IMG/VR virus record: IMGVR_UViG_3300032218_000775
Span: 1 to 30,666 of that record
From: a virus
Lineage: Duplodnaviria > Caudoviricetes
DNA length: 30,666 nt
Strand: one strand, 5' to 3'
Positions 310 to 21,203 of the stretch are shown here, one piece after another. How positions within the stretch are numbered: position 1 is the first letter of the stretch; the number at the start of each line of letters is the position of its first letter. The notes beneath the pieces are model-generated. The model saw nothing but the letters and a program-made list of their open reading frames with translations. It made no database searches and was not told where the DNA came from. A program made the translations under genes and the position numbers.

Positions 310-1250
310 GCTTGTTTCCTCATTTCTTCAGCAACCTTACGAGCATAGAGTTCCAAAGGAACCCCAAGCCGCTTGGCGATATTTACCTGCGTTTGTGTAA
401 GTACGATCTTTTTAGGCGCTGTACTACGTGATGCCGGTGCTACAACATTTGACTTCTGGCGCTGAGATGGTTTCGCATCAGCGGGTTCCTCTGCAAATGC
501 CTCAGGGAACCTTGCTTTCATATCAGAATCTATGGCCGCGAAATAATCGTCGCTTGCGGCGGAAATTCCAGAATCCACAATATCTTCATGGAGTGACAAT
601 GCATAGGCAGTCATCTTTCGATTGGTGCCCCACCATGGATTTTTTGAAACCCATGACTTAGTATTATCGTCCAATTCAGGTACTTGGGCGGGTTTTACTA
701 TAGTTTTTGGCTCTTGTAAAGGGGCTGGCTTAAAATTATTTACTTTGTCCGCCCGAATTGCAGCAGAAGTTAATTTTGCCTGAGCCTTGACAAGCCGGTC
801 AGTATCCCCGGATTCATAAGCGTCCTTATATTCACGCTGGGCGTTATCAATCTCCGACTCCACCACTTTCTTAGCCTGCTCCAGTAGGGCAGTTTGGTTA
901 GTGGCTAGGGAACCCTGTAGGCGCTTATTCTCTTCTACTACCGACTCAGCCATACGCAAAGCTTCTTCTCGCTCACGTAGTGCAGTCTCCTTTGCCCGAC
1001 GTTCCTCGTGGTAGCCCTTATTAATATGGGCCAACCGGTCTTTGAGTTTCTGGTCAGTGTATTTAGATAACTCCTCGTCCGTTACCGGGGCTGGAGCTTC
1101 TTTCATAGGAGTACGGTGTCTGTCCGCTGGAGGAGTATCGTCAACAATTTCGATATCCGCCTCGGGCTCAGGGGCTACTACCCGCCCACCTTCGCGGGGG
1201 TTCTTAGCCTCGATTTCGTCCGGAAATTCAAATTCAGTTATTTCAGTCAT
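306..1250 (-). CDS. Putative capsid scaffolding protein (acidic N-terminus, coiled coil)
   Basis: 314 aa, GGAG RBS, long E/K/A-rich helical region, located downstream of the portal in the head operon. Function inferred from position and composition. Confidence 0.65.
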   Translation of the reverse strand: MTEITEFEFPDEIEAKNPREGGRVVAPEPEADIEIVDDTPPADRHRTPMKEAPAPVTDEELSKYTDQKLKDRLAHINKGYHEERRAKETALREREEALRMAESVVEENKRLQGSLATNQTALLEQAKKVVESEIDNAQREYKDAYESGDTDRLVKAQAKLTSAAIRADKVNNFKPAPLQEPKTIVKPAQVPELDDNTKSWVSKNPWWGTNRKMTAYALSLHEDIVDSGISAASDDYFAAIDSDMKARFPEAFAEEPADAKPSQRQKSNVVAPASRSTAPKKIVLTQTQVNIAKRLGVPLELYARKVAEEMRKQA

Positions 1251-1259
1251 GATGACTCC

Positions 1260-1661
1260 TTATGGGCGTTGAATGCCGCGTGGGTCTTGCACCACAGCTT
1301 CGACACACTCATCTTGAATTAACCGCCATTCGGTGCCGTGGATTTTCATCCGAGTACCTGTGTTGGGTCGAGTAAGAATAAAGTCACCTACCTTGCAGCT
1401 TGGGCCGCTTGGAAAGCGTTTCTCATCCTTATAGGCATCAGGGCCCATTTTTGCTACAAATAGCACAGGGGACAGAAGCTCCTCGTGGTGCATCATTTGC
1501 GCAGTTTTTACCAGCCCCGATTCTCCAATTTCCTCTTCGGCTTTTGGAACCATACACAACAAGTAGTATGTACATGGGTCAGGTACTTGTTTGGCTTTTT
1601 CTTCTGGGTCAGTATTTAATATCCCAGATAAATCAACCGCAGCGACATTAAAGTCATTCAT
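1260..1661 (-). CDS. groES: GroES-like co-chaperonin
   Basis: Start reassigned to ATG 1661 (AAGGA RBS). 133 aa with GroES-like motifs: ESGLV mobile loop, VAKMGPDAY, KVGDFIL, GTRMKIHGTEWRLIQDECVEAVV. Confidence 0.8.
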   Translation of the reverse strand: MNDFNVAAVDLSGILNTDPEEKAKQVPDPCTYYLLCMVPKAEEEIGESGLVKTAQMMHHEELLSPVLFVAKMGPDAYKDEKRFPSGPSCKVGDFILTRPNTGTRMKIHGTEWRLIQDECVEAVVQDPRGIQRP

Positions 1662-1729
1662 TTGTTTTCCTTGCACGCATGGGGTTTGAGCGTATTTCGG
1701 CGGGTAACCCCAGATAAACCCATCCAAAC

Positions 1730-1924
1730 TTAGTCTTCTGCCCGCTGTAAGCGCTGCTCCATATCTCTTACATAATTCATCGCACGGGTTAACCCCAGCA
1801 CCTGACCACACAAATATTTGTACTCAGGGAAGTCAGCAGATGCCCCAGCCGCAATTACTTGGGTTATCTGCTGGATTTCCTCATTCATCTGCTTAGCTAG
1901 CAGACTCATCGCGTCATTGTCCAT
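1730..1924 (-). CDS. Small hypothetical protein (64 aa)
   Basis: GGAG RBS, overlaps the portal stop. The DFPEYKYLCGQVLGL motif is typical of small genes that follow phage portals. Confidence 0.75.
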   Translation of the reverse strand: MDNDAMSLLAKQMNEEIQQITQVIAAGASADFPEYKYLCGQVLGLTRAMNYVRDMEQRLQRAED

Positions 1925-4397
1925 TTACGTCTCCAGCCAGTTTCTGTTGCTGCATCTGATCCTTGTGCATCATGCCTTGCTGGTGTAGCTGAGCCTGCTG
2001 CTGTTGGGCTTGCGCCTGCATAGCCTGCGCTTGCTGTGCCTTTTGGGCATTAATCTGAAGCTGCTGTTGGTGCATCTGCTCAGCCTGCATTGCCTGCTGC
2101 TCAATTTGCATCGGGTTGATGCCGCCTTTATCTGCGTCCAACGCTAGTCGGGCTTGGGCCAACGCAATGTCCGCGTCGATTTTCTTAACGTCCGCGTCAG
2201 CCTTCTGCTTCTTAATCTGAAGCTCTTGCATCTGCATCTGGATAATTGGGTCTTGCATCTGCTGCTGGGCTTGGGCTTGAGCCGCTTGGGCTTTGTTCAT
2301 CTGCAACAACTGCTGCGATGCCTGTGCTACCGCACGCGACAACTCGACCTCCAACTCGGGCGGAAGCTCGACATCAGGCATAGGCATGGGTGCGCCAAGA
2401 CGCTCCTCAATCTTTGTCCTATACATAAACCCAAGGTGTTCTGCAATATGGGCTTGGATAGCCGCCTGCATCTGCTGGGCCATCGGGCTCTGTCCAATCT
2501 GCGCTGCAATCATCGGGTCTTGCATGAATGTCGAATGCACCGCGATGTGAGCCTCATGGTCTTGATAGATAAACGCTTTGGTAGGCTTACCCTTAAGGAA
2601 TGACATGTTCTCGCTGATCGGGTCACGCGGCTTCTGGTCGTCCTCGATAGGCACAATCTTCTCGGCGTTCTTAACCCCCAACACCTCAATCATCTGGCGG
2701 TGCAAGTACGGCAAGTCGTAAATATTGGGAGCCTGCGCAGACAGTTGGGTAACCGCCTGATACTGCATGATCCGCTGCGCCATCGTGCTGCTGTTGGGAT
2801 CGCTAACCGGGATGATCTCCACCAAGTCGTAGTCCGACTGCTTAGCTTTACGGTTCCCACCTTCAGGGTTATAGCTGTACTCCTGAGGCGTATGGTCACG
2901 GATCAGCACCTTAAGTAGCTTGAACTCCTGTTTCATGGAGTAGTGAACCCGTGCCTGCACCGCGCTCATGGTCTTAAGCTGACGCTCCAGCAGTGCCAGA
3001 GTCGTACCTACCGGAGCATTCGCACCCATGTCGCTGATGTTCAAATCAGCAATAGACCCCAGACGGCGACCTTCTTCGGTGATCTGATTGAGCAGTGCTG
3101 CCAGAACTTGCGACGGCTCCTTATATGGGAGCGCCATGATGTTGTCGCGGATTGTCCCCGATGTGACATCAACGTCCCGGAACTCTCCCGGTGCGATAGG
3201 CGTATCGTCACCCTTAACACGTAGCCCACGGGCTTTCATACCTCCGGGCAAGTTACTCAGCGTGCCAGCGTCCACCAACTGACGGATTAGAGAAGTGCCT
3301 GCGCGAGCGTAGCCGCCGATCAAATGGATCAACCCAAGGCCGTAGGCCCCAAACCCCGGCACGTATGTGTACTGTACGAAGTGCTGGCGCTTTAGTTTTA
3401 ACTTGTCGTCCTCTTCCCAGTTACGACGGATAGCCAAAATCTCAGTGCTGCTACGGTCAATAGTGACCACGTATGGACGGGCTACCCCATCCTTGTCCTC
3501 GTACCCCGGCATGTCGTAGTCAACATGAACCTCATATACCTGATACCGGTCATCATCGGTCAGGGAGTAGCCTTGCCCTTCAGCTTTCTTCTTCTCTACG
3601 TCTGTGTGTACATTGTCCGGCTCACCCAGATCAACGTCCCTGTAAAAGCCTGCGACTTGTAGGCGCTTAATGTCATTCTTGGTCTTACGCATGATATGCG
3701 TAACACGCTCCGCAGTCTGCGCACTGGACGCGCCATAAGGGATGATTAGGTCTTCGGCTGGGATAAACATCGCTGTCTGACGCCCCAACGCTGGGTCGAA
3801 GTACACCTTCTTAAACGCCGCGCCTGCCAAGCCAAGGTTATATAGCATGCGCTCATGCTCGGGCCGATACTCAGGCATCTCCTCTACCAACTGGTAATTC
3901 ATGTCGTCGCGGACACGATCAGCAGCTTCTGCCGTCTCAGGGGTATCTTCACCAATAATCTGGGTCTTGACCGGGCCCTGCGCAGGGAAACTCTCGGTAA
4001 TGGTTTCTGACTGGAACCTGATAGCAGCTTCAGTAAGTATGGTGGAGAACACTCCGCATGCGCCATTCCACGGCTCAGTGCGCTCTTCGTAGTTCATACC
4101 AAGGACTTCCAATCCCTTGACATACATCTCTACCCAGTCCTTGCGTGATTGGATATCGGCGTCAATCAGATCAATAAGCTCTGAGCCCAGCAACTGCAAG
4201 TCGCTCTCATCCATGACTTCAGCTAAGTTCTCATCAAACTCGCCCTCGCCGTGGGGCAGAATCTCAATCTCCATACCCCCAGTTTTGACCATAACGCTGT
4301 CAGGATTCTCCACTTCAATCTCAAGTGGGCTTTCATCGCCTTCGTCAATACCCATCGGGGCTTGATACAGGGAAGGGCTCATGCTATTGGTAGCCAT
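1914..4397 (-). CDS. Portal protein (P22-like) with Q-rich C-terminal coiled coil
   Basis: 827 aa directly after terL, AAGGA RBS. Motifs PWNGAC, GAAFKKVYFD and GFGAYGLGLIHLIG resemble podovirus portals. Confidence 0.85.
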   Translation of the reverse strand: MATNSMSPSLYQAPMGIDEGDESPLEIEVENPDSVMVKTGGMEIEILPHGEGEFDENLAEVMDESDLQLLGSELIDLIDADIQSRKDWVEMYVKGLEVLGMNYEERTEPWNGACGVFSTILTEAAIRFQSETITESFPAQGPVKTQIIGEDTPETAEAADRVRDDMNYQLVEEMPEYRPEHERMLYNLGLAGAAFKKVYFDPALGRQTAMFIPAEDLIIPYGASSAQTAERVTHIMRKTKNDIKRLQVAGFYRDVDLGEPDNVHTDVEKKKAEGQGYSLTDDDRYQVYEVHVDYDMPGYEDKDGVARPYVVTIDRSSTEILAIRRNWEEDDKLKLKRQHFVQYTYVPGFGAYGLGLIHLIGGYARAGTSLIRQLVDAGTLSNLPGGMKARGLRVKGDDTPIAPGEFRDVDVTSGTIRDNIMALPYKEPSQVLAALLNQITEEGRRLGSIADLNISDMGANAPVGTTLALLERQLKTMSAVQARVHYSMKQEFKLLKVLIRDHTPQEYSYNPEGGNRKAKQSDYDLVEIIPVSDPNSSTMAQRIMQYQAVTQLSAQAPNIYDLPYLHRQMIEVLGVKNAEKIVPIEDDQKPRDPISENMSFLKGKPTKAFIYQDHEAHIAVHSTFMQDPMIAAQIGQSPMAQQMQAAIQAHIAEHLGFMYRTKIEERLGAPMPMPDVELPPELEVELSRAVAQASQQLLQMNKAQAAQAQAQQQMQDPIIQMQMQELQIKKQKADADVKKIDADIALAQARLALDADKGGINPMQIEQQAMQAEQMHQQQLQINAQKAQQAQAMQAQAQQQQAQLHQQGMMHKDQMQQQKLAGDVNGQ

Positions 4398-4418
4398 ATT
4401 AATTCCTTAAAAGTATTC

Positions 4419-5936
4419 CTAATAATACGCAGGGCGGCGACTACTACGGAAAAATTGCTCGTCCTCGGGATCGCTCTTCATTGTAAGTAGCCCACCCTTA
4501 CGGATACGTATTAGCGCCAATGTCATGGTGTCAACTTCGTCGTCATGTTCCCCAGCAGGGAACGCTAGTATCTCTTCTACTGTGGTTGCTGCCCAGCTAG
4601 TTTCTGGAAACCACACATGCCCGGAGGCAAACATGTCCGCCACGGAGTTCAACCGCGCAATCTTATCCTGTCCTTTGCCCGGACTGAAATCCTGTACAAA
4701 TATACCTGACCGGCGCATCTCATCTATTAATGGCTGACCGCTGGCCTTGGCTTCTACGATCACACTGTCCGGCTCCCAGTTGGCAAACTGCTCATGCGCC
4801 ATGGTTTTCAACTCAGGAAACTCATATTTACCCTTGACTGAGTTAAGCAGGATCACATTATTACTGCCGTCCTCTTCGCTAGTAAAAGTTCCCCATGTAT
4901 GACACACAGAATAATCTGACCGGCTGTTAGTAGTGAGGGCAGTATCGTAAGACTGCACGATGAAGTCGATTGGCGGCGGGTCTTTCTTCCCCCACCATTT
5001 AATCCACTCCCGCTTAATAATCGCAGCCTCCGATGCGGTGGGGTTTTGCTGATACTGTGCATACCACTGCCACATAATGTGGTGCATCGACGCCCGAGTT
5101 TGCTGCAAAGACTCAATTGACCACTGCTCAGGCCATATTGACTTCTCATCTTCGGTATTTTCATTAAGAATTGCAGGAAATTCAAAGGCTTCGTAGACAT
5201 CGCCGCCCTCGTTTATCGCAGAATCCTTCAAAAGCCGCCCAATTAAGTCCCGCTGGTGCCAGCGCGTGTGCAAAACGCATATTTTCCCGTTAGGCATGAG
5301 ACGAGTACGCAATCCAGCACTAAACCACTCGTATGTAGCGTCCAATGAGGTGGTATTTCCCGATTTAATGTCCTGTTCTGACAGTGGATCGTCGGCAATA
5401 ATCAGATTTGCACCCCGTCCGGCCAGCGCACCACCCACACCAATAGAAAAATACTCGCCTCCACGGGTGGTATTCCACTGTCCCGCCGCCTTAGCGTCCG
5501 ATGCGATGGCAGTTGCAGGAAAAATAGACTTGTACTCAGGCGTATTAATTAGATTTCGCACCTTGCGGGCCATAACTAACGCCAAATCAGCCGTGTGGGA
5601 AGCCACAATTACCTTGTGGTCGGGGTGCCGACCTAAATACCACGCCGGATAATAGATAGAAATCATCTGGGACTTGCCCATACGAGGTGCCATAGACACC
5701 GCAATCCGGCTTTTTACGTCCTGCTCCACATCCATGAGCAGGGAACCTAGGCGTTTTAGGTGAATACCAAACTTGTACTGCTTGTCAATAGCTGCAATGA
5801 ACGCAAGAAAGTCGTCGCGGGCCATCTGCACCCGCTTGCGCTCCTCGATTTCATCAAACATAACCAGTAGTTCAGCCGCCTCGTTGTGCGGCATGTTCCT
5901 GATTATCTTGTCGATCATCGCTCTGGATAGCTCCAT
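4419..5936 (-). CDS. terL: Terminase large subunit
   Basis: Walker A MAPRMGKS, Walker B IIADDP, coupling motif HTRWH, QYQQNP, RNase-H nuclease residues SYDTA and HDDEVD. Confidence 0.95.
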   Translation of the reverse strand: MELSRAMIDKIIRNMPHNEAAELLVMFDEIEERKRVQMARDDFLAFIAAIDKQYKFGIHLKRLGSLLMDVEQDVKSRIAVSMAPRMGKSQMISIYYPAWYLGRHPDHKVIVASHTADLALVMARKVRNLINTPEYKSIFPATAIASDAKAAGQWNTTRGGEYFSIGVGGALAGRGANLIIADDPLSEQDIKSGNTTSLDATYEWFSAGLRTRLMPNGKICVLHTRWHQRDLIGRLLKDSAINEGGDVYEAFEFPAILNENTEDEKSIWPEQWSIESLQQTRASMHHIMWQWYAQYQQNPTASEAAIIKREWIKWWGKKDPPPIDFIVQSYDTALTTNSRSDYSVCHTWGTFTSEEDGSNNVILLNSVKGKYEFPELKTMAHEQFANWEPDSVIVEAKASGQPLIDEMRRSGIFVQDFSPGKGQDKIARLNSVADMFASGHVWFPETSWAATTVEEILAFPAGEHDDEVDTMTLALIRIRKGGLLTMKSDPEDEQFFRSSRRPAYY

Positions 5937-6478
5937 CAGCCCACGACCTCTGTAATATCTAGCCGCATAGGCGATGACTTAGGTGACGGGTCAAACTCCC
6001 CCGCCTCAACCACCCGAGTAAGCCTCTCCCGCAGCAGTTGCTCCAGTTCTTCCGTTGGCCGGTGCCGCATGGTAATTTCTGTCTTGTCCGTAAACAACCC
6101 AACGTCACTAATCTTACCCAGCATCTCCAACGCCTTCAGACGAATACGTGGGTCTGGATTATCCGAGTCAAGGATTAACTTATTAGTTATATAGGTACGC
6201 AGTTGTACGGCAGACTTGACCACTACATGATCGTATTCCTGCAAGAGCCCAGCAAGGTGGGCAACTACTCCGGGGCGGGCTAGGTCTTCGTCAGACGCCC
6301 GTTGATGTCCGGCAAATATCTCGCGGGATACTTCTTGCTCGCGTGGGGAAACTTCTTGGGGTATGGAGTCAGTATCTACCAAAGACGCAATGGCAGCAGC
6401 CACCCTGTCTTCCAGAGACTCAAATGTTGGGAGGAAATCCGCAACGGGTATATCGTAATCTACAGATACAGTGTACAT
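5936..6478 (-). CDS. Putative terminase small subunit
   Basis: 180 aa whose stop overlaps the terL start. The C-terminal RLKALEMLGK..VGLF motif is typical of TerS-like proteins. Confidence 0.6.
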   Translation of the reverse strand: MYTVSVDYDIPVADFLPTFESLEDRVAAAIASLVDTDSIPQEVSPREQEVSREIFAGHQRASDEDLARPGVVAHLAGLLQEYDHVVVKSAVQLRTYITNKLILDSDNPDPRIRLKALEMLGKISDVGLFTDKTEITMRHRPTEELEQLLRERLTRVVEAGEFDPSPKSSPMRLDITEVVG

Positions 6479-6599
6479 GGCGAGTTGACGCAGCCTAAGT
6501 TGGCCCGAGTATATGCGATATTTTTTGCATGGGGCTTTTATTTTTGTACCGGGGGGGTCTCCTATTTTGAGGGGGGTGGGTGTACTGGGATTTTACTAG

Positions 6600-6619
6600 T
6601 ACTGTATGGGCATACAGTA
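6600..6619. promoter_or_regulatory. LexA (SOS) box
   Basis: TACTGTATGGGCATACAGTA fits CTGT-N8-ACAG with the taCTGTat...atACAGta flanks of the Beta/Gammaproteobacterial consensus. Confidence 0.75.
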
Positions 6620-6744
6620 GTTTCTGTGGGATTGTGATTCGTAAGTCGATCACTCAGTGTAAAGGCGCGTGGGCGGAGTCCCAGAATAGATTTGGGGGGT
6701 GGGGTGCGGGTGGGTCGGCTGGGTGAGCTTTACCCGGTTAATGG

Positions 6745-6773
6745 TTGTTTAATTCTAAGGGAATAGCTACAAT
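6745..6773 (+). promoter_or_regulatory. sigma70 promoter for the 188-aa gene
   Basis: TTGTTT (6745-6750), 17-bp spacer, TACAAT (6768-6773); GGAG RBS and ATG 6815 downstream. Confidence 0.6.
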
Positions 6774-6814
6774 TCAACCATGGCAACGTCGCCATATTAA
6801 ACGGAGTATTCAAA

Positions 6815-7381
6815 ATGCAAGTTGTATCAATCATCAACCCCTCTATCATCGACGCTACTATCAAGGCCTTTGATAAATCACAATCGACAATCGAGGCCGC
6901 TACACGCAAGGCCACTGAAATCGAGGACAAGGCTATTCAAAAAACCCTCGACGCTATGCTTATCGCATGCGATAAACCAAAGGCACAATTTATGAAGGGT
7001 AACGCGGTAAAAAATCCGGCGCGCGCACAAATTAAGGGTTTGTTCGATGCCTTGGCCGAAAAGGGGTTCATTAGCAAAGCTAGCGCGTCGGTATATCAAT
7101 CGTGTTTCTGGATGGCCTTCGAAAAGGGTATCCCGTTTTCCCGTACCTTGGCCAAGGATGCTAGCGACGCGAAGGCCGCTACAAAGGACAGCGCCGAAGG
7201 CGAGGCCGCAAAGCCCAAAGCAAAGGCCGGTAAGGTATCCACTACAACCCGCGCCGAACTGGATAAAACCATAACGAAGGTTTTGCAACAAGCCCGTTTA
7301 CTTAATTTGACTGACTTTGCCGGTGACATCTTGGACGTATGCATTGACCGCTTGGACGGGTTCAAAGAAATAACCGAATAA
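6815..7381 (+). CDS. Stand-alone Ala/Lys-rich hypothetical protein (188 aa)
   Basis: GGAG RBS, its own promoter and its own terminator; no family recognised. Confidence 0.85.
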   Translation: MQVVSIINPSIIDATIKAFDKSQSTIEAATRKATEIEDKAIQKTLDAMLIACDKPKAQFMKGNAVKNPARAQIKGLFDALAEKGFISKASASVYQSCFWMAFEKGIPFSRTLAKDASDAKAATKDSAEGEAAKPKAKAGKVSTTTRAELDKTITKVLQQARLLNLTDFAGDILDVCIDRLDGFKEITE

Positions 7382-7399
7382 GGGTTTACCCTTACCACC

Positions 7400-7424
7400 A
7401 ACCCCGCCGAGGCGGGGTTTTTTT
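7400..7424 (+). terminator. Rho-independent terminator
   Basis: AACCCCGC-CGAG-GCGGGGTT followed by a T-run, just after the stop at 7381. Confidence 0.9.
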
Positions 7425-7544
7425 GCGCCCGGATTTTTTGCGCGTCATAGTAGTGCGACTGCGGGTGAGCAGGCGAGCGAGCGAGCGAGTGGGCGCGGAC
7501 ATCGGGCGGGGCTGGCAGTGGGGAACCCGTCACGGCAAGTGAAC

Positions 7545-7560
7545 TTTTAACCGGTTAAAA
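7545..7560. repeat. 16-bp palindromic motif, copy 1
   Basis: TTTTAACCGGTTAAAA, a perfect palindrome. Confidence 0.9.
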
Positions 7561-7642
7561 CTTTGGCGCGGGTACTATGACGCGGCGGGCGCAGGGCAGT
7601 TACAAAACCTGTTACGCGTGTTACGAAACCTGTTACAGCAAG

Positions 7643-7658
7643 TTTTAACCAGTTAAAA
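7643..7658. repeat. 16-bp palindromic motif, copy 2
   Basis: TTTTAACCAGTTAAAA, with flanks in inverted orientation relative to most other copies. Confidence 0.9.
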
Positions 7659-7757
7659 GTATCCCTACTGCTAGCAGGGTTTGTTACGCGTGTTACAAAA
7701 ATATTTGACATGTTACAAAACTTCTTGTAACAAGGAATGCAGGTAGGTGCCTATACA

Positions 7758-7770
7758 AATCAACGAGTTA
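7758..7770 (+). promoter_or_regulatory. IHF binding site
   Basis: AATCAACGAGTTA matches WATCAR-N4-TTR. Confidence 0.7.
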
Positions 7771-7996
7771 CAGAGAGAGAGAGAGATATAATATATATAT
7801 TTTATTGTTGTTACAGGTGTTACAGGCTTTTTCGGCCTTTTTTCAAAAATTCAATCTGTCCGCACCCACTTACAGAAAACTAAATATGGAGCGATGAAAA
7901 TGCACCGTTTTGGTGATTCGCGGACGTATTAGGGCGGATGGTGGCTTTTATACCCTAAAACCCCGTAACAGCCGTAACACCCCATTTTCAAATTCC

Positions 7997-8009
7997 TAAG
8001 TCATTGATT
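7997..8009 (-). promoter_or_regulatory. IHF binding site
   Basis: The reverse complement AATCAATGACTTA matches WATCAR-N4-TTR. Confidence 0.7.
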
Positions 8010-8135
8010 TATAAGGCGAAACCCGTTACAGACATTTTTGTAACAAAGCCCCATTTCTTGTAACACGCGTAACAAACCCCACCACCATCATGGTTATTAC
8101 CCCCTAAAACGCTCCATAATTAGTTTTCCAAACAC

Positions 8136-8164
8136 TTGACAAACCCCCTGCATTCTGCTAGAAT
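8136..8164 (+). promoter_or_regulatory. Strong sigma70 early promoter
   Basis: TTGACA (8136-8141), 17-bp spacer, TAGAAT (8159-8164) with an extended -10 TG. Confidence 0.9.
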
Positions 8165-8224
8165 AGACCCATCGACTTGGATATCGCTCCGAGTCTGCGA
8201 CGACCCCTACACTTACATGGCGTC

Positions 8225-8238
8225 TGCTCTTTAACAAT
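8225..8238 (+). promoter_or_regulatory. boxA antitermination element (rrn-type)
   Basis: TGCTCTTTAACAAT matches the rRNA-leader boxA consensus, about 55 nt after the predicted start site and preceded by a hairpin (8174-8195). Confidence 0.85.
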
Positions 8239-8269
8239 TCACTGGCAATGTTGGTTAGAACTTATAGAG

Positions 8270-8285
8270 TTTTAACCAGTTAAAA
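8270..8285. repeat. 16-bp palindromic motif, copy 3
   Basis: TTTTAACCAGTTAAAA. Confidence 0.9.
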
Positions 8286-8693
8286 CAAACCGCCGCTGGT
8301 CAACGCGACCAGAAACTACATAGAAGGAATCGACGTGTAAACGAACCCCAGCAGGGGAACCAAAAGAAACAGACAGTCGTGAGATATCTCCCTGAGTAAA
8401 TAGGCGTAGGGTAGCCAGTCCCTGCATGCAATGGTGTAGCCCCGTAGGCCGAGGTCAGGTGGGCGATAGCTGCATGCAATCTAGACGCATACTACTTAAA
8501 TGAGTAGGGCAAAGCACTAATCCTGCCGAGCCCTTAGGGATGTGGAACCAGCACGCTGGGATAAGCCACACCGACAAACCCTATCGTAGTCCACCGGCAT
8601 CACGCCGGGGCGACAGCTCCCGATAACGGGGAGCCTAGCGTATAGGGTATGAGCAGCCACGCTGTGCCCTATCCGGTAGCACGCTACCAATTC

Positions 8694-8709
8694 TTTTAAC
8701 CAGTTAAAT
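8694..8709. repeat. 16-bp palindromic motif, copy 4 (abuts RBS)
   Basis: TTTTAACCAGTTAAAT followed by CTAAGGAACCAGTATG. Confidence 0.9.
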
Positions 8710-8722
8710 CTAAGGAACCAGT

Positions 8723-8893
8723 ATGAATCGACATCAAGTATTAGCTGACATCGTGATTGCTATGGTCATGACATCCTGCCTCGACTGGGGGTTAGGCGGG
8801 AGCACATCCGTGCATCAAGGGATGCTGATATTCGGCGGCATGTGCGCGGGCTATTTAATAACCACCTACCTAAACATGGGAGAACTGAAATGA
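8723..8893 (+). CDS. Small putative membrane protein (56 aa)
   Basis: Below the ORF-track cutoff. TAAGGA RBS; MNRHQVLADIVIAMVMTSCLDWGLGGSTSVHQGMLIFGGMCAGYLITTYLNMGELK has two hydrophobic stretches; ATGA overlap with the next gene. Confidence 0.7.
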   Translation: MNRHQVLADIVIAMVMTSCLDWGLGGSTSVHQGMLIFGGMCAGYLITTYLNMGELK

Positions 8894-9087
8894 CAACCTA
8901 TATCGTAGAACTTAAGCGCCTATCGTATGTGGACTTCACTATCGAGGCTGACACACCCGAGCAAGCCGAGGCCCTAGCATGGGAACGGGTTGAGAGTGGG
9001 TCAGTATCTGACGGCGTTGCAGACTGGACGCTCAGTGACATATATGAACTGCCGTATGAGCTAGACCTACCGAGCCGCGAAGGCTAA
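8890..9087 (+). CDS. Small acidic hypothetical protein (65 aa)
   Basis: Start reassigned to ATG 8890 (GGAG RBS, ATGA coupling). The IEADTPEQAEALA motif is common in small phage proteins. Confidence 0.75.
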   Translation: MTTYIVELKRLSYVDFTIEADTPEQAEALAWERVESGSVSDGVADWTLSDIYELPYELDLPSREG

Positions 9088-9096
9088 GCCGTAATC

Positions 9097-9112
9097 TTTT
9101 AACCAGTTAAAT
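9097..9112. repeat. 16-bp palindromic motif, copy 5 (abuts RBS)
   Basis: TTTTAACCAGTTAAAT followed by TTAAGGAACCATTATG. Confidence 0.9.
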
Positions 9113-9125
9113 TTAAGGAACCATT

Positions 9126-9890
9126 ATGACCACGTATGACAAACTCAAACTACACATTGCCGGCCATGCCTACAAGCGTGGGCAGTACAAGGGCGATGCC
9201 CCTTTCGACAAGTCAAGGCGCGGACGTAGCCACCACCGCGTAGTGCAGCGGGCAGACTGTATAGCAATCAGATTCCACAACACAGATATTGTGCGGGCTT
9301 ACCCCGATGGGCGCGTGATGCTTGACTGTAACGGGTGGGCAAGCAGTATCACCACAATGACTGCGGTGCGGGACGCGAATAAGTTTCTGTCTTTCACTCT
9401 AAGCATAGGTAGCCGCAGCGTCATGAGCTTGAATCAGATGGTGGTGATACGCGGGGGCGAGACCATTCTTTACTACGATGGCATCACGTTTGACGGCGAG
9501 GGCAATGTTATCACCCCGTTGCGCCCATTCGAGGCGCGGCGCATAGACAAGGCAGAGTCCAAGGAATTCATGGACGGGCTACAAGCATCGGGGTTCAAGG
9601 ACATGTACAAGATTCTGTACGCCACAGTGCAGCCGCCCGAGGGAACGCTAGGAGTTTATAACCCACGCCGATTGAGCGACATCCTCACCGACCCCGAGAC
9701 AGCATCAACATGGCCCGACATCATCGCCAAGTACAAGTATGACCATAAGTGGCAGTACGCTGCATCCAGCGGTATGCATAGGGGGTGGGTAGAGTCAGGC
9801 ACCGCTAAGACCTGCTGGTCACGCATCATGGCCGTATGCAAAAAAGGTATGTACAGCACAATCAAGACGGAGGTAGTAAGCATCAAGTAA
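9126..9890 (+). CDS. Hypothetical early protein (254 aa)
   Basis: Long ORF with TAAGGA RBS; no family assigned. Confidence 0.85.
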   Translation: MTTYDKLKLHIAGHAYKRGQYKGDAPFDKSRRGRSHHRVVQRADCIAIRFHNTDIVRAYPDGRVMLDCNGWASSITTMTAVRDANKFLSFTLSIGSRSVMSLNQMVVIRGGETILYYDGITFDGEGNVITPLRPFEARRIDKAESKEFMDGLQASGFKDMYKILYATVQPPEGTLGVYNPRRLSDILTDPETASTWPDIIAKYKYDHKWQYAASSGMHRGWVESGTAKTCWSRIMAVCKKGMYSTIKTEVVSIK

Positions 9891-9914
9891 GCATCACACC
9901 ACATACTCTCAAAC

Positions 9915-9930
9915 TTCTAACCAGTTAAAA
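9915..9930. repeat. 16-bp palindromic motif, copy 6
   Basis: TTCTAACCAGTTAAAA (1 mismatch), upstream of the AAA ATPase. Confidence 0.85.
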
Positions 9931-9957
9931 CTTTTCTTTTCTTTTCTAGGACACATC

Positions 9958-11019
9958 ATGAAAGTCAATCATTCTCAATCCGCTACTCTCATTCAATCCA
10001 TCGGTGCTAACAACACCATCCTACTGCGGGGGCAACCCGGCATCGGCAAGTCGGACATCTTCAAATCCCTGCGGTCATCCCTGCATGACCATCACTTCTG
10101 CTACGTAGACGTAGCTAACCTTGACCTCGGCGACCTTGGCATGCCGGTCATTGACCGTGAGGAGATGACCACTAGCTACGCACCCAATGTGCGGTTCGGT
10201 GTGGGTAAGCATCAGACCAAGCCCGTAGTACTTATGCTCGATGAGCTAGGCAAGGCATCCCGCCCCGTTATGAATATGCTGCTGCCGGTTATCTTGGAGC
10301 ATCGCATCGGTGACGTTAAGTTACCCGAGGGGTCGATTGTGTTTGGTACTACCAACCTAGATACCGATGGCGTGGGTGACAACATCCCTGCACATGCGTT
10401 CAATCGTATGACTGTGGTGACGCTGGCTAACCCTACGTCCGAGGCGTGGCTGCAATGGGCGGCTAACAACAATGTAGCGCCTGAGATTATGGCGTTCGCC
10501 CATCAGACGCCGGAGATATTTGACTGCTACGCTGACCTCGACTCCAAGACTAAGAACCCGTACATCTTCAACCCGATGACCGGCAATACCAAGGCGTTCT
10601 GTTCACCGCGTTCGCTGGTCAAGGCGGGCAACATCATCAGTCAACGTGCGGTACTAGGGGAGGCTACCCTGCCTGCACTGGCGGGCACTATCGGCGAGTC
10701 GGCGGCGCGGCAGATGGACGCGATTATCAACATGGCTGACCAGTTGCCATCGTTCAAGGCTATCACGCTATCACCTAGCACGACCAAGGTGCCTAAGACT
10801 GCCGGGGCTCTGTTCCTCATGGCGTTCATGCTAGCTGGCAAAGTAACCGAGGACACGATGGACGCGGTGATGGAGTACGCCGAGCGTATGAGTAAGGAGT
10901 CGTTCGAGGCGCATGCGCTGTTCGTTATGTCACTGGCTACCAATAGCGCCAAGGTAGGTATGGCCTGCCGTAACCGTTCGTTTACTACTGCCGCAGCCAA
11001 GCTCGGTAAGTTTTTCTAA
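9958..11019 (+). CDS. MoxR/dynein-related AAA+ ATPase
   Basis: Walker A GQPGIGKS, Walker B LMLDEL, sensor GTTN, arginine finger FNRM, SPRS motif. Confidence 0.9.
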   Translation: MKVNHSQSATLIQSIGANNTILLRGQPGIGKSDIFKSLRSSLHDHHFCYVDVANLDLGDLGMPVIDREEMTTSYAPNVRFGVGKHQTKPVVLMLDELGKASRPVMNMLLPVILEHRIGDVKLPEGSIVFGTTNLDTDGVGDNIPAHAFNRMTVVTLANPTSEAWLQWAANNNVAPEIMAFAHQTPEIFDCYADLDSKTKNPYIFNPMTGNTKAFCSPRSLVKAGNIISQRAVLGEATLPALAGTIGESAARQMDAIINMADQLPSFKAITLSPSTTKVPKTAGALFLMAFMLAGKVTEDTMDAVMEYAERMSKESFEAHALFVMSLATNSAKVGMACRNRSFTTAAAKLGKFF

Positions 11020-11030
11020 GGGGCACATTC

Positions 11031-11177
11031 ATGCTGATAACTGAACGCACAAGTGACGGGCGCACCATCGTGCGCTTGCACAAAGACTGGCACCCCGGAC
11101 GTATCGGGATTGCATACCGACCTAAAACTTTTAACCAGTTAAAACTTTCCAAGGAGAAGCGAGATGGACGTAAGTAA
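11031..11177 (+). CDS. Possible small basic protein (48 aa)
   Basis: AGGGG RBS-like sequence; MLITERTSDGRTIVRLHKDWHPGRIGIAYRPK... fills the gap between the ATPase and vWA genes. Confidence 0.5.
   Translation: MLITERTSDGRTIVRLHKDWHPGRIGIAYRPKTFNQLKLSKEKRDGRK
11129..11144. repeat. 16-bp palindromic motif, copy 7
   Basis: TTTTAACCAGTTAAAA just upstream of the AAGGAG RBS of the vWA gene. Confidence 0.9.
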
Positions 11178-12324
11178 CCGTATCAAGAAAGCGCACATCG
11201 CCATCATGCAGCACAAGAAGTTCTGTGCGTATAGCGGTGTGATTGCGTGTGGCAAAGTCGAGGTGACTACATCAGTACCTACTGCGGCTACCGATGGCTG
11301 GGACGTTTGGTACAACCCTGACTTCATCGAAGCGAACATGCCCACTGACCCTGAGTTGCGGTTCCTTGTACTGCACGAGGCGACACACAAGGCGTATCGG
11401 CACATGGCTGTGTGGAAGTCATTGCATACCATCAATGCCCAGCTAGCTAACGTGGCTGCTGACTACTTTGTCAACGGCGCACTGGTGGACACCGACGATG
11501 GTGAGGGCTTTATCAAGATGCCTAGTAAAAGTGGTATCAAGCCTAAGCCTGAGTATCGTGGCTGGTCGGTGTTGCAGATATTCAATGACCTCATGAAAGA
11601 CCCCGAGAACGGCAGCGGTGGCGGTGGCCTAGACGACCATGACTGGGAAGGTAACGCAGCTAACAACGACCCCGAGGCTGCACAAGAGCAGGCCAACGAG
11701 ATTCAACGTGCCATACGTCAGGGCGAGATGCTGCGTAAGCGGCTGTCCAAAGAAGGTGCCGATGGTTCGGATGGTGTGTTCGGTGACTTACTCGCACCTA
11801 AGATTGACTGGCGCAAAGCACTGCGTGAGTTTGTGCAAGAGACGTGCAGCGGGCGTGATGAGTCGTCGTGGTCTCGGCCTAATCGTAGGTTTCTTAGCGA
11901 GGACATCTACATGCCTACCATGCTGGGCACCACCATGAGCGAGTTAGTTATTGGGTTCGACACATCGGGCTCGTGCTTCGGCGGTGCTGAGATGACTAGG
12001 TTCGTGTCAGAGATAACGACCATCATCGGTGATGTCAAGCCGCACAAGGTTCACGTCATCTATTGGGACACGGCAGTGGCAGGGCATCAGACGTTCGAGG
12101 ATGGGCAGTTCGCTGTGCAAGACCTCAAGCCCAAGGGCGGTGGCGGCACCGATGGTGCAGTGTTATTCAACTACCTACGCAAGAAGCGTATTACGCCGCA
12201 AGCTATCGTGCAGTTTACCGATGGGTACGTAGGTGATTGGGGGCGTAGCGATGTGCCTACATTGTGGGCTGTGACATCCGACATCAAAGCGCCGTTCGGT
12301 ACGACTATTTCTTTGGAGGTGTGA
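11164..12324 (+). CDS. Metallopeptidase-like + vWA domain protein (DUF2201-like)
   Basis: TAATDG, HEATH (HExxH), Gly linker, MIDAS motif FDTSGS, GGGT and FTDG. Confidence 0.9.
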   Translation: MDVSNRIKKAHIAIMQHKKFCAYSGVIACGKVEVTTSVPTAATDGWDVWYNPDFIEANMPTDPELRFLVLHEATHKAYRHMAVWKSLHTINAQLANVAADYFVNGALVDTDDGEGFIKMPSKSGIKPKPEYRGWSVLQIFNDLMKDPENGSGGGGLDDHDWEGNAANNDPEAAQEQANEIQRAIRQGEMLRKRLSKEGADGSDGVFGDLLAPKIDWRKALREFVQETCSGRDESSWSRPNRRFLSEDIYMPTMLGTTMSELVIGFDTSGSCFGGAEMTRFVSEITTIIGDVKPHKVHVIYWDTAVAGHQTFEDGQFAVQDLKPKGGGGTDGAVLFNYLRKKRITPQAIVQFTDGYVGDWGRSDVPTLWAVTSDIKAPFGTTISLEV

Positions 12325-12325
12325 C

Positions 12326-12706
12326 ATGGGCTATCGCAGTGATGTTGTGTGCATCATCTATCCAAACGGGGAAAGCATAAATAAAACAGAGAAGTACGCG
12401 TTACTTAAAACTCTCATGGCCACTACGTTCAAAGACGTATCAGAAGCGTGGGGGTCAAAGATGGAATGGCTCGATGCCGACTGCATATTGGAGTTTGATA
12501 TCCCCGATGTGAAATGGTATGGAGATTACGTCGAAGTCAAAGCCTTTGAAGAGATGCGCGAGAGGATTGAAGCCGAGGAGTTTGAAAGTATCGCTATCGA
12601 ATTCATACGTGTAGGTGAGGAGCCAGACGATATTGACCAGCATCATTCAATGATTGGTGAGTATTACTTAAATACCCAAACAGCAATAGTTAGGGGGCAC
12701 CGATGA
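12326..12706 (+). CDS. Hypothetical protein (MGYRSDV-type phage family)
   Basis: GGAGGT RBS; MGYRSDV...VKWY...FIRVGEE motifs. Confidence 0.85.
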   Translation: MGYRSDVVCIIYPNGESINKTEKYALLKTLMATTFKDVSEAWGSKMEWLDADCILEFDIPDVKWYGDYVEVKAFEEMRERIEAEEFESIAIEFIRVGEEPDDIDQHHSMIGEYYLNTQTAIVRGHR

Positions 12707-12948
12707 AAGGCGAGTGGCATGCTATGAATGCCGGGTATATGTACGTCAACAATGAATGGGGAGTCATGTGCCGGATACATCAGTTCAACGATGGGTGGAT
12801 GCTATCCATTAGCCCGAGCGTCCGTGGCCCATTGGGCCTTGACGTATTCTTTAACAACATCTTTCGCACTAAGGCAGAAGCTAAGGAAGCGTTTGATGGA
12901 TTGATAACTGTGTACAACATTAAGGAGAACGCAGATGAACGTACATGA
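12703..12948 (+). CDS. Hypothetical protein (81 aa)
   Basis: ATGA coupling to the upstream gene; GGGGG RBS-like sequence. Confidence 0.7.
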   Translation: MKGEWHAMNAGYMYVNNEWGVMCRIHQFNDGWMLSISPSVRGPLGLDVFFNNIFRTKAEAKEAFDGLITVYNIKENADERT

Positions 12949-13537
12949 ATTGAAAGCTAGTGACCCTAAGCGGTTTCAGAAAGAGTATGACGACTGGCGT
13001 GAAAACGCTTGTCATGATGACTGGTGGGAGTATGTGCAAGAGGGTTTGAAGGCCGACTGTGCCGAGGTCGGCATCACGGTGAAGGACATTCAATTCAACC
13101 TAGGGTATTCGCAGAGTGACTACGCTGCATTCAACGGGCAGATAGATGTGGTTGAGTGGATGCAGGCCGAAGGATATGACGTTAAGTATCCCGCGCTGTA
13201 CGTGGCAATGGATGACTATCGAGAGTACGCGACTGTATCTACAAGCCATAGAGGGCACTCTCGCGTAAACATGGAGTATTCAGTAATAGGTAATACCTAC
13301 CCATCGGGGATATTCAAACACCTAGACCGTGAGGCGTGGGATGAATTAGTTGAGGAGCAATGCGACATGGCAAACCTTGAGGATGCTATGCAAGAGTGGG
13401 TGGGTAAGCGGTGCAGTAAGTTGTACCGTGAGCTACGTGATGAGTATGAACACCTGACATCCGAGGAATCTTTTATCGAGTCATGTGAGTGCAATGAAAT
13501 TACTTTTGAGGAGAATGGAAATGAAGTATGTAGTTAG
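12935..13537 (+). CDS. Acidic hypothetical protein (200 aa)
   Basis: AAGGAG RBS. The DDWWE, YSQSDYAAF and LYRELRDEYEHLTSEE motifs recall a family seen on phages and plasmids, often loosely annotated 'antitoxin of toxin-antitoxin stability system'. Confidence 0.8.
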   Translation: MNVHELKASDPKRFQKEYDDWRENACHDDWWEYVQEGLKADCAEVGITVKDIQFNLGYSQSDYAAFNGQIDVVEWMQAEGYDVKYPALYVAMDDYREYATVSTSHRGHSRVNMEYSVIGNTYPSGIFKHLDREAWDELVEEQCDMANLEDAMQEWVGKRCSKLYRELRDEYEHLTSEESFIESCECNEITFEENGNEVCS

Positions 13538-13775
13538 TGTGAGTGATAAGAAAGTGCTGCTAAACGAAACCCAACTGGCGCAGCTAAGTGCGGTGCTAGC
13601 GGAGTGTGAGTTTATGGAGGAGAAGTACCTAGGCGCTAACCAAGGTACGTATGGGGACAACCTTCAATACAAGGACGTACTCAATCGTGTGCCGACACGC
13701 GGCTGGCTCAATGTGCTGTGCGTTAACGATGATTACTATGACGCGCTTAAATTTGTGAATCAACTAAACAAATAA
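13521..13775 (+). CDS. Hypothetical protein (84 aa)
   Basis: Start reassigned to ATG 13521 after GAGGAG; overlaps the upstream stop. Confidence 0.7.
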   Translation: MKYVVSVSDKKVLLNETQLAQLSAVLAECEFMEEKYLGANQGTYGDNLQYKDVLNRVPTRGWLNVLCVNDDYYDALKFVNQLNK

Positions 13776-13777
13776 AC

Positions 13778-13793
13778 TTTTAACTAGTTAAAA
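13778..13793. repeat. 16-bp palindromic motif, copy 8
   Basis: TTTTAACTAGTTAAAA, a perfect palindrome, with the same AAC...CTTTGG flanks as copy 1. Confidence 0.9.
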
Positions 13794-13808
13794 CTTTGGA
13801 GAAACATT

Positions 13809-14696
13809 ATGACTAATCAACACATCGCTGGCGTTGCGCGTGCCGCCATGCTCGTAGACCTCAACATCTCAACCTACTCAGGACGTAAGCAAGACCGGGC
13901 TACACAAGCCGAGGTAACTACCGCCAAGGGCTCAGGCTCATCGAAGGCTGCATCGGTATACAAGAACCTGTTCGCTGAGTGCAAAGAGCTAGAAGCTATC
14001 ACCAAGTTCCAAGCGCGGGCTAGGGCTGAACACTACCGCCTGACCCTGCCGTGGAATGACCGTGGTGCGAGGCTATTGCCCACTGCGACCCTGATGGACT
14101 ACAAGGCTGAGATGAACCGATACCAAGCGGAGTTTCAGTTACTGGTCGATGCGTTCCTTGCTAAGTACGACACGCTGGTAGCGGCTGCTGCGTTCCAGTT
14201 GGGCACGTTGTTTGACCGCCAAGAGTACCCCGACACTACTCAGGTGGCGCGTAGGTTCCGCATGGACATAGGGTTTGTCCCACTACCCACATCGGGCGAC
14301 TTCCGGTTAGATGTTGAGAGCGAGGTACAGCGCGAGCTTATGGAGCAGTACGAGCGCAAGCTAGGTGAGCAGTTGGCATCGGCTACGCAGGACTCATGGA
14401 CTCGGCTGCACAGTGCCCTAAGCAAGCTAAGTGACCGCCTGACTGTGGAGGAGGATGGGGAGAAGCGTAAGTTCCACGATACCTTGGTGACTGGTGCCGT
14501 GGAGTTGTGTGACCTGCTGACCGCCATGAACGTGACCAACGACCCTGAGTTGGAGAAAGCTAGGCGTAAGCTTCAGGATGTATTGTCCGGCGTAACTCCC
14601 AAAGAGTTGCGGGAGGAGGATGGTACTCGTGTGTTAGTAAAGCAGAAGGTGGACGACATCCTGTCTGCATTTGATTGGGGATTTGATGGAGTATAG
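13809..14696 (+). CDS. DUF3150-like protein
   Basis: 295 aa; LVDLNIS.YSGRK, TLPW..RG.RLLP and EYP motifs, helical C-terminal half. This family usually co-occurs with AAA/vWA pairs. Confidence 0.7.
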   Translation: MTNQHIAGVARAAMLVDLNISTYSGRKQDRATQAEVTTAKGSGSSKAASVYKNLFAECKELEAITKFQARARAEHYRLTLPWNDRGARLLPTATLMDYKAEMNRYQAEFQLLVDAFLAKYDTLVAAAAFQLGTLFDRQEYPDTTQVARRFRMDIGFVPLPTSGDFRLDVESEVQRELMEQYERKLGEQLASATQDSWTRLHSALSKLSDRLTVEEDGEKRKFHDTLVTGAVELCDLLTAMNVTNDPELEKARRKLQDVLSGVTPKELREEDGTRVLVKQKVDDILSAFDWGFDGV

Positions 14697-14934
14697 ATAC
14701 GAAGAAGAAGGTGACACGTTTCGACTGACCACGTATGAATATGATAGGTTTGCGTCTGAGCCTTTCACTTCCTTGCACCGGTTAGATATGCGTCCTGACT
14801 GGTTACTTACCATACTGGACGTAGCAAAAATAGCGGGGAAGTTCCCCGTTATCAGATACCAACCGCCAAAGCACATCCTGTGGTTTGAGACGGACGACAA
14901 CAATAACCTAGTGAGGTTTAGCCATGATGTTTGA
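14686..14934 (+). CDS. Hypothetical protein (82 aa)
   Basis: Start at ATG 14686 after GGGGA, overlapping the upstream stop. Confidence 0.7.
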   Translation: MEYRYEEEGDTFRLTTYEYDRFASEPFTSLHRLDMRPDWLLTILDVAKIAGKFPVIRYQPPKHILWFETDDNNNLVRFSHDV

Positions 14935-15097
14935 CAACATGACCGATAGGGAGTTACTGCATGAAGTAGACATGCTACTTAAGAAAGACAAACTACTAGA
15001 GCTACTGGCCGAAAGGCTGGATATGCGTATGCGTGAGATTGAAGATTTACAAAACGAAATTCTGAAACTTGAAGGAGAAATTGATGACCTTGCTTAA
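14924..15097 (+). CDS. Small coiled-coil protein (57 aa)
   Basis: Below the ORF-track cutoff. GAGG RBS; MMFDNMTDRELLHEVDMLLKKDKLLELLAERLDMRMREIEDLQNEILKLEGEIDDLA overlaps both neighbours. Confidence 0.75.
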   Translation: MMFDNMTDRELLHEVDMLLKKDKLLELLAERLDMRMREIEDLQNEILKLEGEIDDLA

Positions 15098-15569
15098 AGA
15101 AAAACTGGAAGCCGCAATTGCTGAGTGGGAAGAACCTACGGGCAAACAACTGTTTAGAGTTACTAACAACGTGACTCGTACTACGTTTAATATGGTCAGG
15201 GATAACCCCGGCATCACCCGTAAGGAAACGGTTGAGAAGCTGCGTTTGATAGGGTACAAACCCGCATCTACTGCAACGCTTGTATCGCAAATGATTCGGC
15301 AACGTCTTATCCGCATTGAAGGTGATGAGTTGCATGCCAACTTTTCGGAGTACACGCCACTTAAAGCTAGCCTGCGCGGTAGCCCAAAGGCTAAGGCTAA
15401 AGTTAAGGTCAAGGCTAAGTCCGCAGCTAAGGTCAAGGTAGAGGCACCAGCACCAGCGCCAAGGACAGCCATCATCACGACTAACTACAACGTAGATAAC
15501 ATCATCAAGAACCTGACCATCTATCAGGCCAAAGAACTGCGCGATACGCTCAACAACTTATTTAAGTAA
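15084..15569 (+). CDS. Putative DNA-binding protein (wHTH-like + Lys/Ala-rich linker)
   Basis: AAGGAG RBS before ATG 15084; NPGITRKETVEKL...TLVSQMIRQRLI is wHTH-like; KAKAKVKVKAKSAAK tract. Confidence 0.7.
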   Translation: MTLLKEKLEAAIAEWEEPTGKQLFRVTNNVTRTTFNMVRDNPGITRKETVEKLRLIGYKPASTATLVSQMIRQRLIRIEGDELHANFSEYTPLKASLRGSPKAKAKVKVKAKSAAKVKVEAPAPAPRTAIITTNYNVDNIIKNLTIYQAKELRDTLNNLFK

Positions 15570-15578
15570 GGACAACCA

Positions 15579-15779
15579 ATGAAAAAGATACGATTCATGG
15601 AGTTGATGAAAGAGCCCTTCAAGAAACCAACACCCCTTGAGATGATTGCCGCCGAACTAGCTGACGCGCACCTTGAGAAGTTAAACGCCGAGACTGCGGT
15701 GGAGTACGCCCAGTCAATCGTGGACTACAACGCTACCCGCATTGCACGCCTTAACTCACGACTGGAGGAATACAAATGA
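15579..15779 (+). CDS. Hypothetical protein (66 aa)
   Basis: AAGGA RBS, ATGA coupling. Confidence 0.75.
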   Translation: MKKIRFMELMKEPFKKPTPLEMIAAELADAHLEKLNAETAVEYAQSIVDYNATRIARLNSRLEEYK

Positions 15780-16018
15780 AAGATGCAACGATTGATGGAA
15801 CGATTAATGCAACGATTGCCAAGCAGTACACCGAATGGAACATCAAGAACGGCGGCATGGTAACTGCCATGACCTTGCGTGATTACTGGGCGGGACTGGC
15901 TATGCAAGGCTTACTTTCTTATGCGGCGACATCAGGCAAATACGCACCGCCAGACGATGAACTTGCAAGGGAAGCGTACAAAATGGCAGATGCAATGCTC
16001 AAGGAGCGTGCCAAATGA
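15776..16018 (+). CDS. Hypothetical protein of the common MTLRDY.A..AMQG phage family
   Basis: MTLRDYWAGLAMQG...AY.MADAML motif; GGAGG RBS. Confidence 0.85.
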   Translation: MKDATIDGTINATIAKQYTEWNIKNGGMVTAMTLRDYWAGLAMQGLLSYAATSGKYAPPDDELAREAYKMADAMLKERAK

Positions 16019-16176
16019 CTGAAGAAGATATCAAACGTGTTAACGAAGCGTATACCAAAGAAACGCTTTATCAAGACCCAATAGATGATATTGCGTCCAC
16101 ATTCAAAGGCTTGATTGCTTTGATATTCGTGGTGGCTGGTTTGACAATGGTTGCTTTTGCAATATGGGGGAAGTGA
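16015..16176 (+). CDS. Small membrane protein (53 aa)
   Basis: Below the cutoff. AAGGAG RBS; C-terminal hydrophobic helix GLIALIFVVAGLTMVAFAIW; coupled on both sides. Confidence 0.75.
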   Translation: MTEEDIKRVNEAYTKETLYQDPIDDIASTFKGLIALIFVVAGLTMVAFAIWGK

Positions 16177-17806: not shown

Positions 17807-17850
17807 GCGTAAAGCCCGCGCACGAGACGACCAACTTAACTGGAGAGACC

Positions 17851-20167: not shown

Positions 20168-20192
20168 CCGCACAAACAAACGCGAGAAACTC

Positions 20193-21189: not shown

Positions 21190-21203
21190 CTAATGTTCCT
21201 ATC

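Follow-up and report, generated by a model that had tools for sequence, protein, structure and literature searches.

Genomic Setting of the Early Leader

The window, i.e., the whole 30,666-nt stretch of DNA analyzed here, represents about half of the genome of an uncultured tailed phage (CheckV 48%). It contains a leftward-reading terminase and portal block, from position 6478, and a long rightward operon (8723–27267) that encodes an ATPase, a DNA polymerase, a helicase, and a primase. The only promoter-like site between positions 6400 and 10000 is a strong σ70-type early promoter on the + strand (8136–8164), with 11 of 12 consensus matches, an extended −10 element, and a predicted transcription start at about 8171; the homologous loci described below are headed by the same promoter. 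The gap between this promoter and the first ORF of the rightward operon constitutes the RNA region (8171–8692), which is followed on the + strand by a palindrome copy, a ribosome-binding site, and the start of the first early ORF at 8723 (8695–8725; ORF list and palindrome scan). The types of promoter and boxA (see below) suggest a proteobacterial host; a contig scan of genomes for a host or prophage yielded only two weak, unrelated matches.

Among the flanking features, a conserved gene that encodes 188 aa, belongs to no known family, and has a terminator of its own is located between the terminase block and a repeat region (6815–7419); Pfam and Atlas searches assigned no function to either of the two flanking proteins, of 188 aa and 254 aa. 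In the repeat region (7590–8130), short repeats in direct and inverted orientation are accompanied by a run of purines and an AT-rich tract, a layout that is kept in relatives and that looks like a replication origin or genome-end signal. A GroES-like gene adjoins the portal gene (1260–1811, − strand), and a stand-alone σ70 region-4 protein, a possible transcription regulator, is encoded between the DNA polymerase and exonuclease genes (19736–20167).

Palindromes, originally predicted to bracket the densest part of the RNA, are real, with ten sites in the window at no more than two mismatches (6729, 7546, 7644, 8271, 8695, 9098, 9916, 11130, 13779, and 29509; 19 strand matches vs. 0.36 expected), but they lie outside the conserved fold and their sequence changes from phage to phage. 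Each phage has its own variant, in up to ten copies per locus. The palindromes precede most early gene blocks, some of them lie upstream of the promoter, and they are likely to represent phage-specific DNA operators. An HTH gene family is found just upstream of the promoter in 28 of 38 loci; no HTH gene is present at this position in the window or in L009 and L010.

Coding Potential, Folding Energy, and Database Searches

The + strand of 8171–8692 folds with a z score of −3.1, with none of 100 shuffled sequences being as stable, as compared to a z score of −0.37 for the − strand, in agreement with the strand and boundaries originally predicted. However, one homologue (L079) presented a z score of only −0.27; folding energy alone is therefore weak evidence, and the case for the RNA rests on comparison. 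Translation of small ORFs across the region finds no counterpart in the data: no + strand ORF of at least 50 aa is present within 8171–8692, the longest sense ORF in the window's leader has 32 codons, the core lengths of 75 homologues are spread evenly over the three frames (26, 27, and 22), and neither the ORF list nor the comparison of these homologues revealed a conserved reading frame.

Rfam 15 models, including GOLLD, ROOL, OLE, HEARO, riboswitches, introns, and RNase P, gave no match in the window at the gathering score. At E values up to 10, positions 7380–9130 showed terminator-like chance matches only, and at E values up to 1 no match was found on the RNA in 14 homologous loci. Searches for tRNA and tmRNA were also negative. 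In line with the original observation, the RNA could not be matched to a tRNA, tmRNA, intron, or riboswitch. BLAST searches of the region, one homologue, and a second RNA against 50,697 phage records produced no match. A supposed resemblance to the 3′ portion of RNase P RNA was rejected, as RF00010 matched 0 of 1 (vs. 11 of 14 controls) and the pairing partners differ.

Distribution of Homologues

Homologues were collected through neighboring-protein searches, two motif scans (yielding 58 and 39 stretches, of which many were chance matches), and one protein alignment, i.e., that of a marker protein from 74 viral and 80 metagenome loci. After exclusion of matches below 60 bits or with a late start, removal of redundancy among the 143 profile matches that reach the 5′ part left 75 sequences, with a mean identity of 56% and an effective number of 64, all of which stem from a group of uncultured phages in which the RNA sits at the head of the early operon. 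We found the RNA in 55 of the 62 non-redundant marker-gene loci whose upstream sequence spans 2.5 kb or more, a proportion biased toward RNA-positive loci by a marker alignment derived from RNA-bearing phages, and it was single-copy in five of five near-complete genomes. The marker protein had no match in the 50,697 phage records, searches with the primase and the ATPase identified distant phages only, and the 36 kb examined of the 61-kb genome of phage Rollin contained no match.

Covariation and Domain Architecture

Covariation was assessed with our own script (not R-scape), using 12 alignments simulated along the tree as the null. Fourteen of 123,530 column pairs exceeded the maximum of these simulations, and all 14 are complementary. 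In a subset of 27 sequences, 88.8% of cells pair, as compared to 30–46% for slid partners, and both partners vary in 20 of 29 pairs. A conserved, structured, noncoding RNA of about 500 bases is thus present at this locus, a conclusion we consider practically certain, and the early promoter at 8136–8164, the covariation, and the lack of an Rfam match support the original prediction of a new large structured RNA as the predicted first early transcript. The pseudoknotted core, boxA, and predicted 3′ processing hairpin described below are additional to the features predicted originally.

All elements of the RNA are on the + strand. At the extreme 5′ end, the previously noticed hairpin at 8174–8195 (P1) is supported by covariation and alignment (56–70 of 67–73 sequences paired per position) and likely protects the RNA. 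It is followed by P2 (8197–8224; alignment), an optional hairpin that has a C-rich loop and precedes boxA, in the position of a boxB, which is missing from homologues with short promoter–boxA spacing, and, beyond boxA, by P3 (8250–8285), a variable hairpin containing the phage-specific palindrome at 8271–8284, likely a DNA operator.

Domain I (8287–8423; covariation and alignment) consists of a three-way junction followed by a hairpin, P5 (8408–8423), whose loop pairs back to 8289–8290 in a 2-bp pseudoknot (8289–8290/8418–8419). Pseudoknot pair 8289:8419 is formed in 75 of 75 homologues (G-C in 43, A-U in 31, and G-U in one). The closing helix P4 (8291–8294/8403–8406) is likewise paired in all 75 at all four positions, with a C-G/U-A exchange at 8293:8404. 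Arm P4a (8296–8312) corresponds to the originally predicted CUGGUC/GACCAG helix, which proved to be conserved (74/75, 75/75, 74/75, 69/70, and 52/69 paired), while P4b (8316–8396) varies from 23 to 232 nt and takes insertions. Junction bases are near-invariant, and insertions, of up to about 200 nt, are confined to peripheral helices; core lengths range from 155 to 545 nt. An insertion of about 220 nt in P4b is common to seven loci (L104, L087, L102, L109, L112, L132, and L219), and other peripheral modules recur as well, which suggests that RNA subdomains have been exchanged between phages.

Downstream of Domain I, the proposed pairing of two 11-nt repeats forms P6, which has a variable tip and is followed by a conserved linker (8424–8490; alignment); the pairing of 8424–8431 with 8470–8477 was found in 57–74 of 70–75 sequences. 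Domain II (8491–8590; covariation and alignment) includes P7 (8491–8495/8586–8590), a conserved internal loop, P8 (8502–8504/8579–8581; one mismatch in the window), and a multiloop with P9 and P10. The columns of Domain II are empty in four of the 75 homologues, one of them a cut-off contig, and Domain I is hence regarded as the universal part. Two variable GC-rich hairpins (8591–8634; local folding) complete this part of the RNA.

Other originally predicted helices fared unevenly on the 75-sequence alignment. The helix at 8541–8570 and its inner stem are supported. By contrast, CCCC/GGGG at 8346–8357 is specific to the window (5–16 of 37–42 paired), and CUACU/AGUAG at 8492–8507 (20/62 to 59/72) loses to P7 (65/70, 70/71, 70/71, and 71/71). 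A three-way junction proposed for 8578–8648 survives in its two GC-rich arms, which fold locally (z = −3.7), but not in its closing stem (8578–8584/8642–8648), which is paired in 8/70 to 67/70, is absent from the covarying pairs, and loses to P8 and to 8643–8649/8665–8671.

boxA, the Predicted Processing Hairpin, and Hammerhead Ribozymes

The order of elements in the leader is promoter, 5′ hairpin, boxA, core, P12, and first gene. boxA (8225–8236; consensus comparison and column conservation) is identical to the E. coli consensus at 12 of 12 positions (PMC13753749), with positions 8229 and 8232 conserved in 75 of 75 homologues, and is mostly located 58–67 nt from the −10 box. According to the accessible text of the same source, boxA alone is enough for an rRNA-type complex (PMC13753749).

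P12 (8635–8679; alignment and likeness to T7) is a predicted RNase III processing hairpin with a predicted cut near 8674/8675. Its upper stem covaries, while its lower stem is invariant, partly mismatched, and competes with P13 (8675–8688; alignment), a short hairpin predicted to close off the 5′ end of the message after processing. P13 is the GGUAG/CUACC helix of the original prediction, confirmed where present (38/44, 40/44, and 40/44 paired, with an A-U/G-C exchange).

A position-weight model of P12, which was designed after the T7 likeness had been noticed, was run over both strands of T7 positions 1–7700. The hairpins before genes 0.3, 1.1, and 1 ranked first (29.6, 23.8, and 23.5, respectively), followed by a score of 18.3, while the window's own P12 scored 29.3; the hairpins before genes 0.5 and 1.3 were outside the top ten, 23 of the 75 training leaders scored below 18.3, and a plain profile HMM of P12 found no T7 site. 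The hairpins before genes 0.3, 1, and 1.1 are not annotated in the T7 record, and we take them, with their cut positions, to be RNase III sites. As described in the available part of PMC1540722, an internal loop in RNase III sites limits cutting to one strand and leaves a protective 3′ hairpin.

Two leaders without a P12 match, L173 and L186 (weight scores of 9.1 and 14.1), carry type II hammerheads in the P12 slot (L173:3459–3514 and L186:2634–2692), with a three-stem catalytic core and an open stem II; these are the only two hammerhead cores among all loci scanned, and both are at the 3′ end of the leader. The L173 hammerhead scored 31.4 bits against RF02276 (E = 0.008), below the gathering score of 37. 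In these two leaders, Domain I was read by eye, as the covariance model missed L173 and matched L186 partly, with an additional 29-bit profile match for L186. The accessible text of Perreault 2011 describes type II hammerheads in phage operons and proposes hammerheads as cutters of long phage transcripts (PMC3088659). L173 and L186 carry one at the leader end, whereas a structural scan of the window's locus (L018) found none, and the hammerhead would be an alternative release device rather than the RNA itself. Both the likeness of P12 to T7 hairpins and the hammerheads that take the place of P12 suggest that the transcript is cut downstream of the RNA, and the RNA is predicted, with good probability, to be released as a discrete species of about 500 nt.

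Near-invariant junctions and a pseudoknot also occur in riboswitch and ribozyme cores, and Domain I, in which insertions are likewise kept to the periphery, could in principle sense the state of the host and gate early expression or processing as a ligand-binding RNA or a new ribozyme. The long helix of the original prediction, which would disrupt P8 and P12, could then be an alternative state; this helix shows no compensating changes, though, and an expression platform, such as a conserved terminator or a helix sequestering the ribosome-binding site, is absent. Moreover, cutting in L173 and L186 would rely on a separate hammerhead, and the core matched none of the riboswitch or ribozyme models in Rfam. 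We consider a sensor or ribozyme improbable. Of the three roles guessed originally, decoy and antiterminator are retained below, while we have no indication that the core is a known ribozyme.

Loss and Replacement of the RNA

Four lineages (L184/L262/L269, L189, L240, and L183) have kept the promoter and operon and lack both the RNA and boxA, leaving a leader of about 50–80 nt. A search of four RNA-less records, among them the complete L189 genome (L269 was not among them), with the RNA model gave no match in any of the four. An extra promoter inside the operon is found only in the L184/L262/L269 lineage among these, while in L189, L240, and L183 the operon has a single promoter and no boxA. 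A general gain of internal promoters upon loss of the RNA is not seen, as the second promoter in L189 and L240 belongs to the upstream HTH gene. Two further loci share a different folded RNA in the slot between boxA and a P12-like hairpin (L182:3600–3980 and L012:1510–1950), which had no match in Rfam or in the 50,697 phage records. Judged by these comparisons, the RNA behaves as an optional, swappable cargo of the leader slot.

Comparison with Known Leaders and Large RNAs

The leader resembles the T7 early leader, which also presents a host-type promoter, a 5′ hairpin, boxA 55–62 nt after the start (at 812, 62 nt after promoter A3), and a similar hairpin before the first gene. In T7, however, boxA and the hairpin are separated by about 35 nt, whereas in the window's family a covarying structure of 300–500 nt is inserted between them, and T7 uses three promoters as compared to one promoter with palindromic operators in the window. 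The antitermination systems of rRNA operons and CRISPR arrays (NusB-S10, NusA, NusG, and SuhB) likewise combine a hairpin, boxA, and a long untranslated RNA, as described in the accessible parts of PMC8632103 and PMC13753749; the leader described here differs in being phage-encoded, in having a cargo that is neither rRNA nor a repeat array, and in that no leader–trailer helix was found.

Large size (several hundred bases), a multi-junction fold with a pseudoknot, and a phage context are shared with GOLLD, ROOL, and phage K lnc001 and lnc002, as described by Weinberg 2017 and in the phage K paper, but our RNA has no Rfam match, has no tRNA neighbors, and is placed in an early leader with boxA and a predicted processing site. 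A structural or packaging RNA, i.e., a ROOL- or GOLLD-like cage or an RNA acting at the neighboring terminase and origin region, would fit the size and modular insertions, as well as the location, some 1.7 kb away from the terminase block and adjacent to iteron-like repeats. We nevertheless regard such a role as very improbable, given an early, operator-flanked promoter, the dispensability of the RNA in complete genomes of the same phage group, and the absence of a GOLLD or ROOL match.

The open-access literature, as represented by listings and the beginnings of abstracts, contained no description of the RNA. Viral RNA candidates in the available part of Fremin 2023 are at most 151 nt long, and six of our record numbers were absent from three of its six supplements, although fragments of the RNA may still be among its candidates. 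The RNA apparently represents a large class undescribed so far, within a known kind of leader. To our knowledge, few large RNAs of bacteria or phages possess a tertiary core that is nearly invariant, and the majority of those examined have proved to be ribozymes, riboswitches, or scaffolds.

Putative Role in Early Infection

We favor, with a probability of roughly 45%, a T7-type leader into which a large RNA has been inserted, with the released RNA acting in trans as a protein-binding decoy. Host RNA polymerase would transcribe the RNA first, from the early promoter, and Nus factors recruited by boxA would carry transcription through 500 untranslated bases. RNase III would then cut the RNA off the message at P12, and the 5′ hairpin, along with the 3′ hairpin left by a single cut, would stabilize the free RNA, which may, during the first minutes of infection, bind a host protein as a folded decoy; a repressor at the palindromes would shut transcription off. 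A trans-acting RNA is favored because boxA travels with the RNA and not with the operon, because the slot is optional and swappable and both RNA ends would be protected, and because T7 shows that boxA and a cut site suffice without such an RNA. By the same token, as T7 has both signals without an RNA cargo, their presence is no proof of a role in trans. The decoy role itself is suggested by analogy with T7, in which the anti-restriction protein encoded by gene 0.3 is made first.

The position of the RNA, always directly behind promoter and boxA, single-copy, and heading a long operon, may instead point to a protein-free processive antiterminator, in which Domain I would bind RNA polymerase or the Nus complex, like HK022 put or lambda boxB with N, and, together with boxA, carry transcription through the 18-kb early and replication operon. 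The largely constant distance of boxA from the −10 box is consistent with this role, as is the position of the RNA in the light of the accessible text of PMC8632103. HK022 put is also a structured RNA just behind an early phage promoter with no evident partner protein; the available text of PMC9378689, which does not mention boxA, describes put as about 70 nt with two hairpins and as working without a tether to the polymerase, so that a 3′ cut is compatible with a polymerase-bound role. The extra internal promoter of the L184/L262/L269 lineage, which appears as if compensating for lost read-through, supports antitermination and counts against a decoy. On the other hand, the other three RNA-less lineages manage with one promoter and no boxA, T7 manages with boxA alone, and terminator-like sites are few in the operon, with one weak + strand site between 8700 and 21100. 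In addition, the size and shape of put are not those of this RNA, which has a pseudoknotted core of 155–545 nt, is two to eight times larger, and is optional and swappable. Antitermination by Domain I is considered less probable than the trans-acting decoy, but is its strong main rival.

Extended beyond this one RNA, the decoy reading leads to the tentative proposal, which we hold to be somewhat less probable than not as a joint claim, that the T7-type leader is an expression cassette for RNA genes, whose first product would be a large folded RNA that is transcribed like rRNA, freed by RNase III or a hammerhead, and able to disarm a host factor. With no fewer than two unrelated classes of RNA occupying the slot, host-takeover or anti-defense genes that consist of RNA only may form a hidden repertoire. 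Either leading outcome, if true, would be new, be it an early takeover factor made of RNA only or a large antiterminator RNA coupled to Nus factors. For further study, the 75 homologues provide natural variants, natural deletions are at hand, the minimal core comprises about 140 bases, and the predicted E. coli compatibility of the promoter, boxA, and cut site makes the leader testable in a laboratory strain.

P12-like Hairpins at Other Gene Junctions

P12-like hairpins also recur before the ATPase gene in several relatives, which makes P12 a mobile gene-junction element. Extra copies consisting of P12 plus P13 are located directly before the ATPase gene in L164 (5498–5606), L172 (4955–5054), L231 (4696–4798), L228 (1111–1207), and L233 (862–955).
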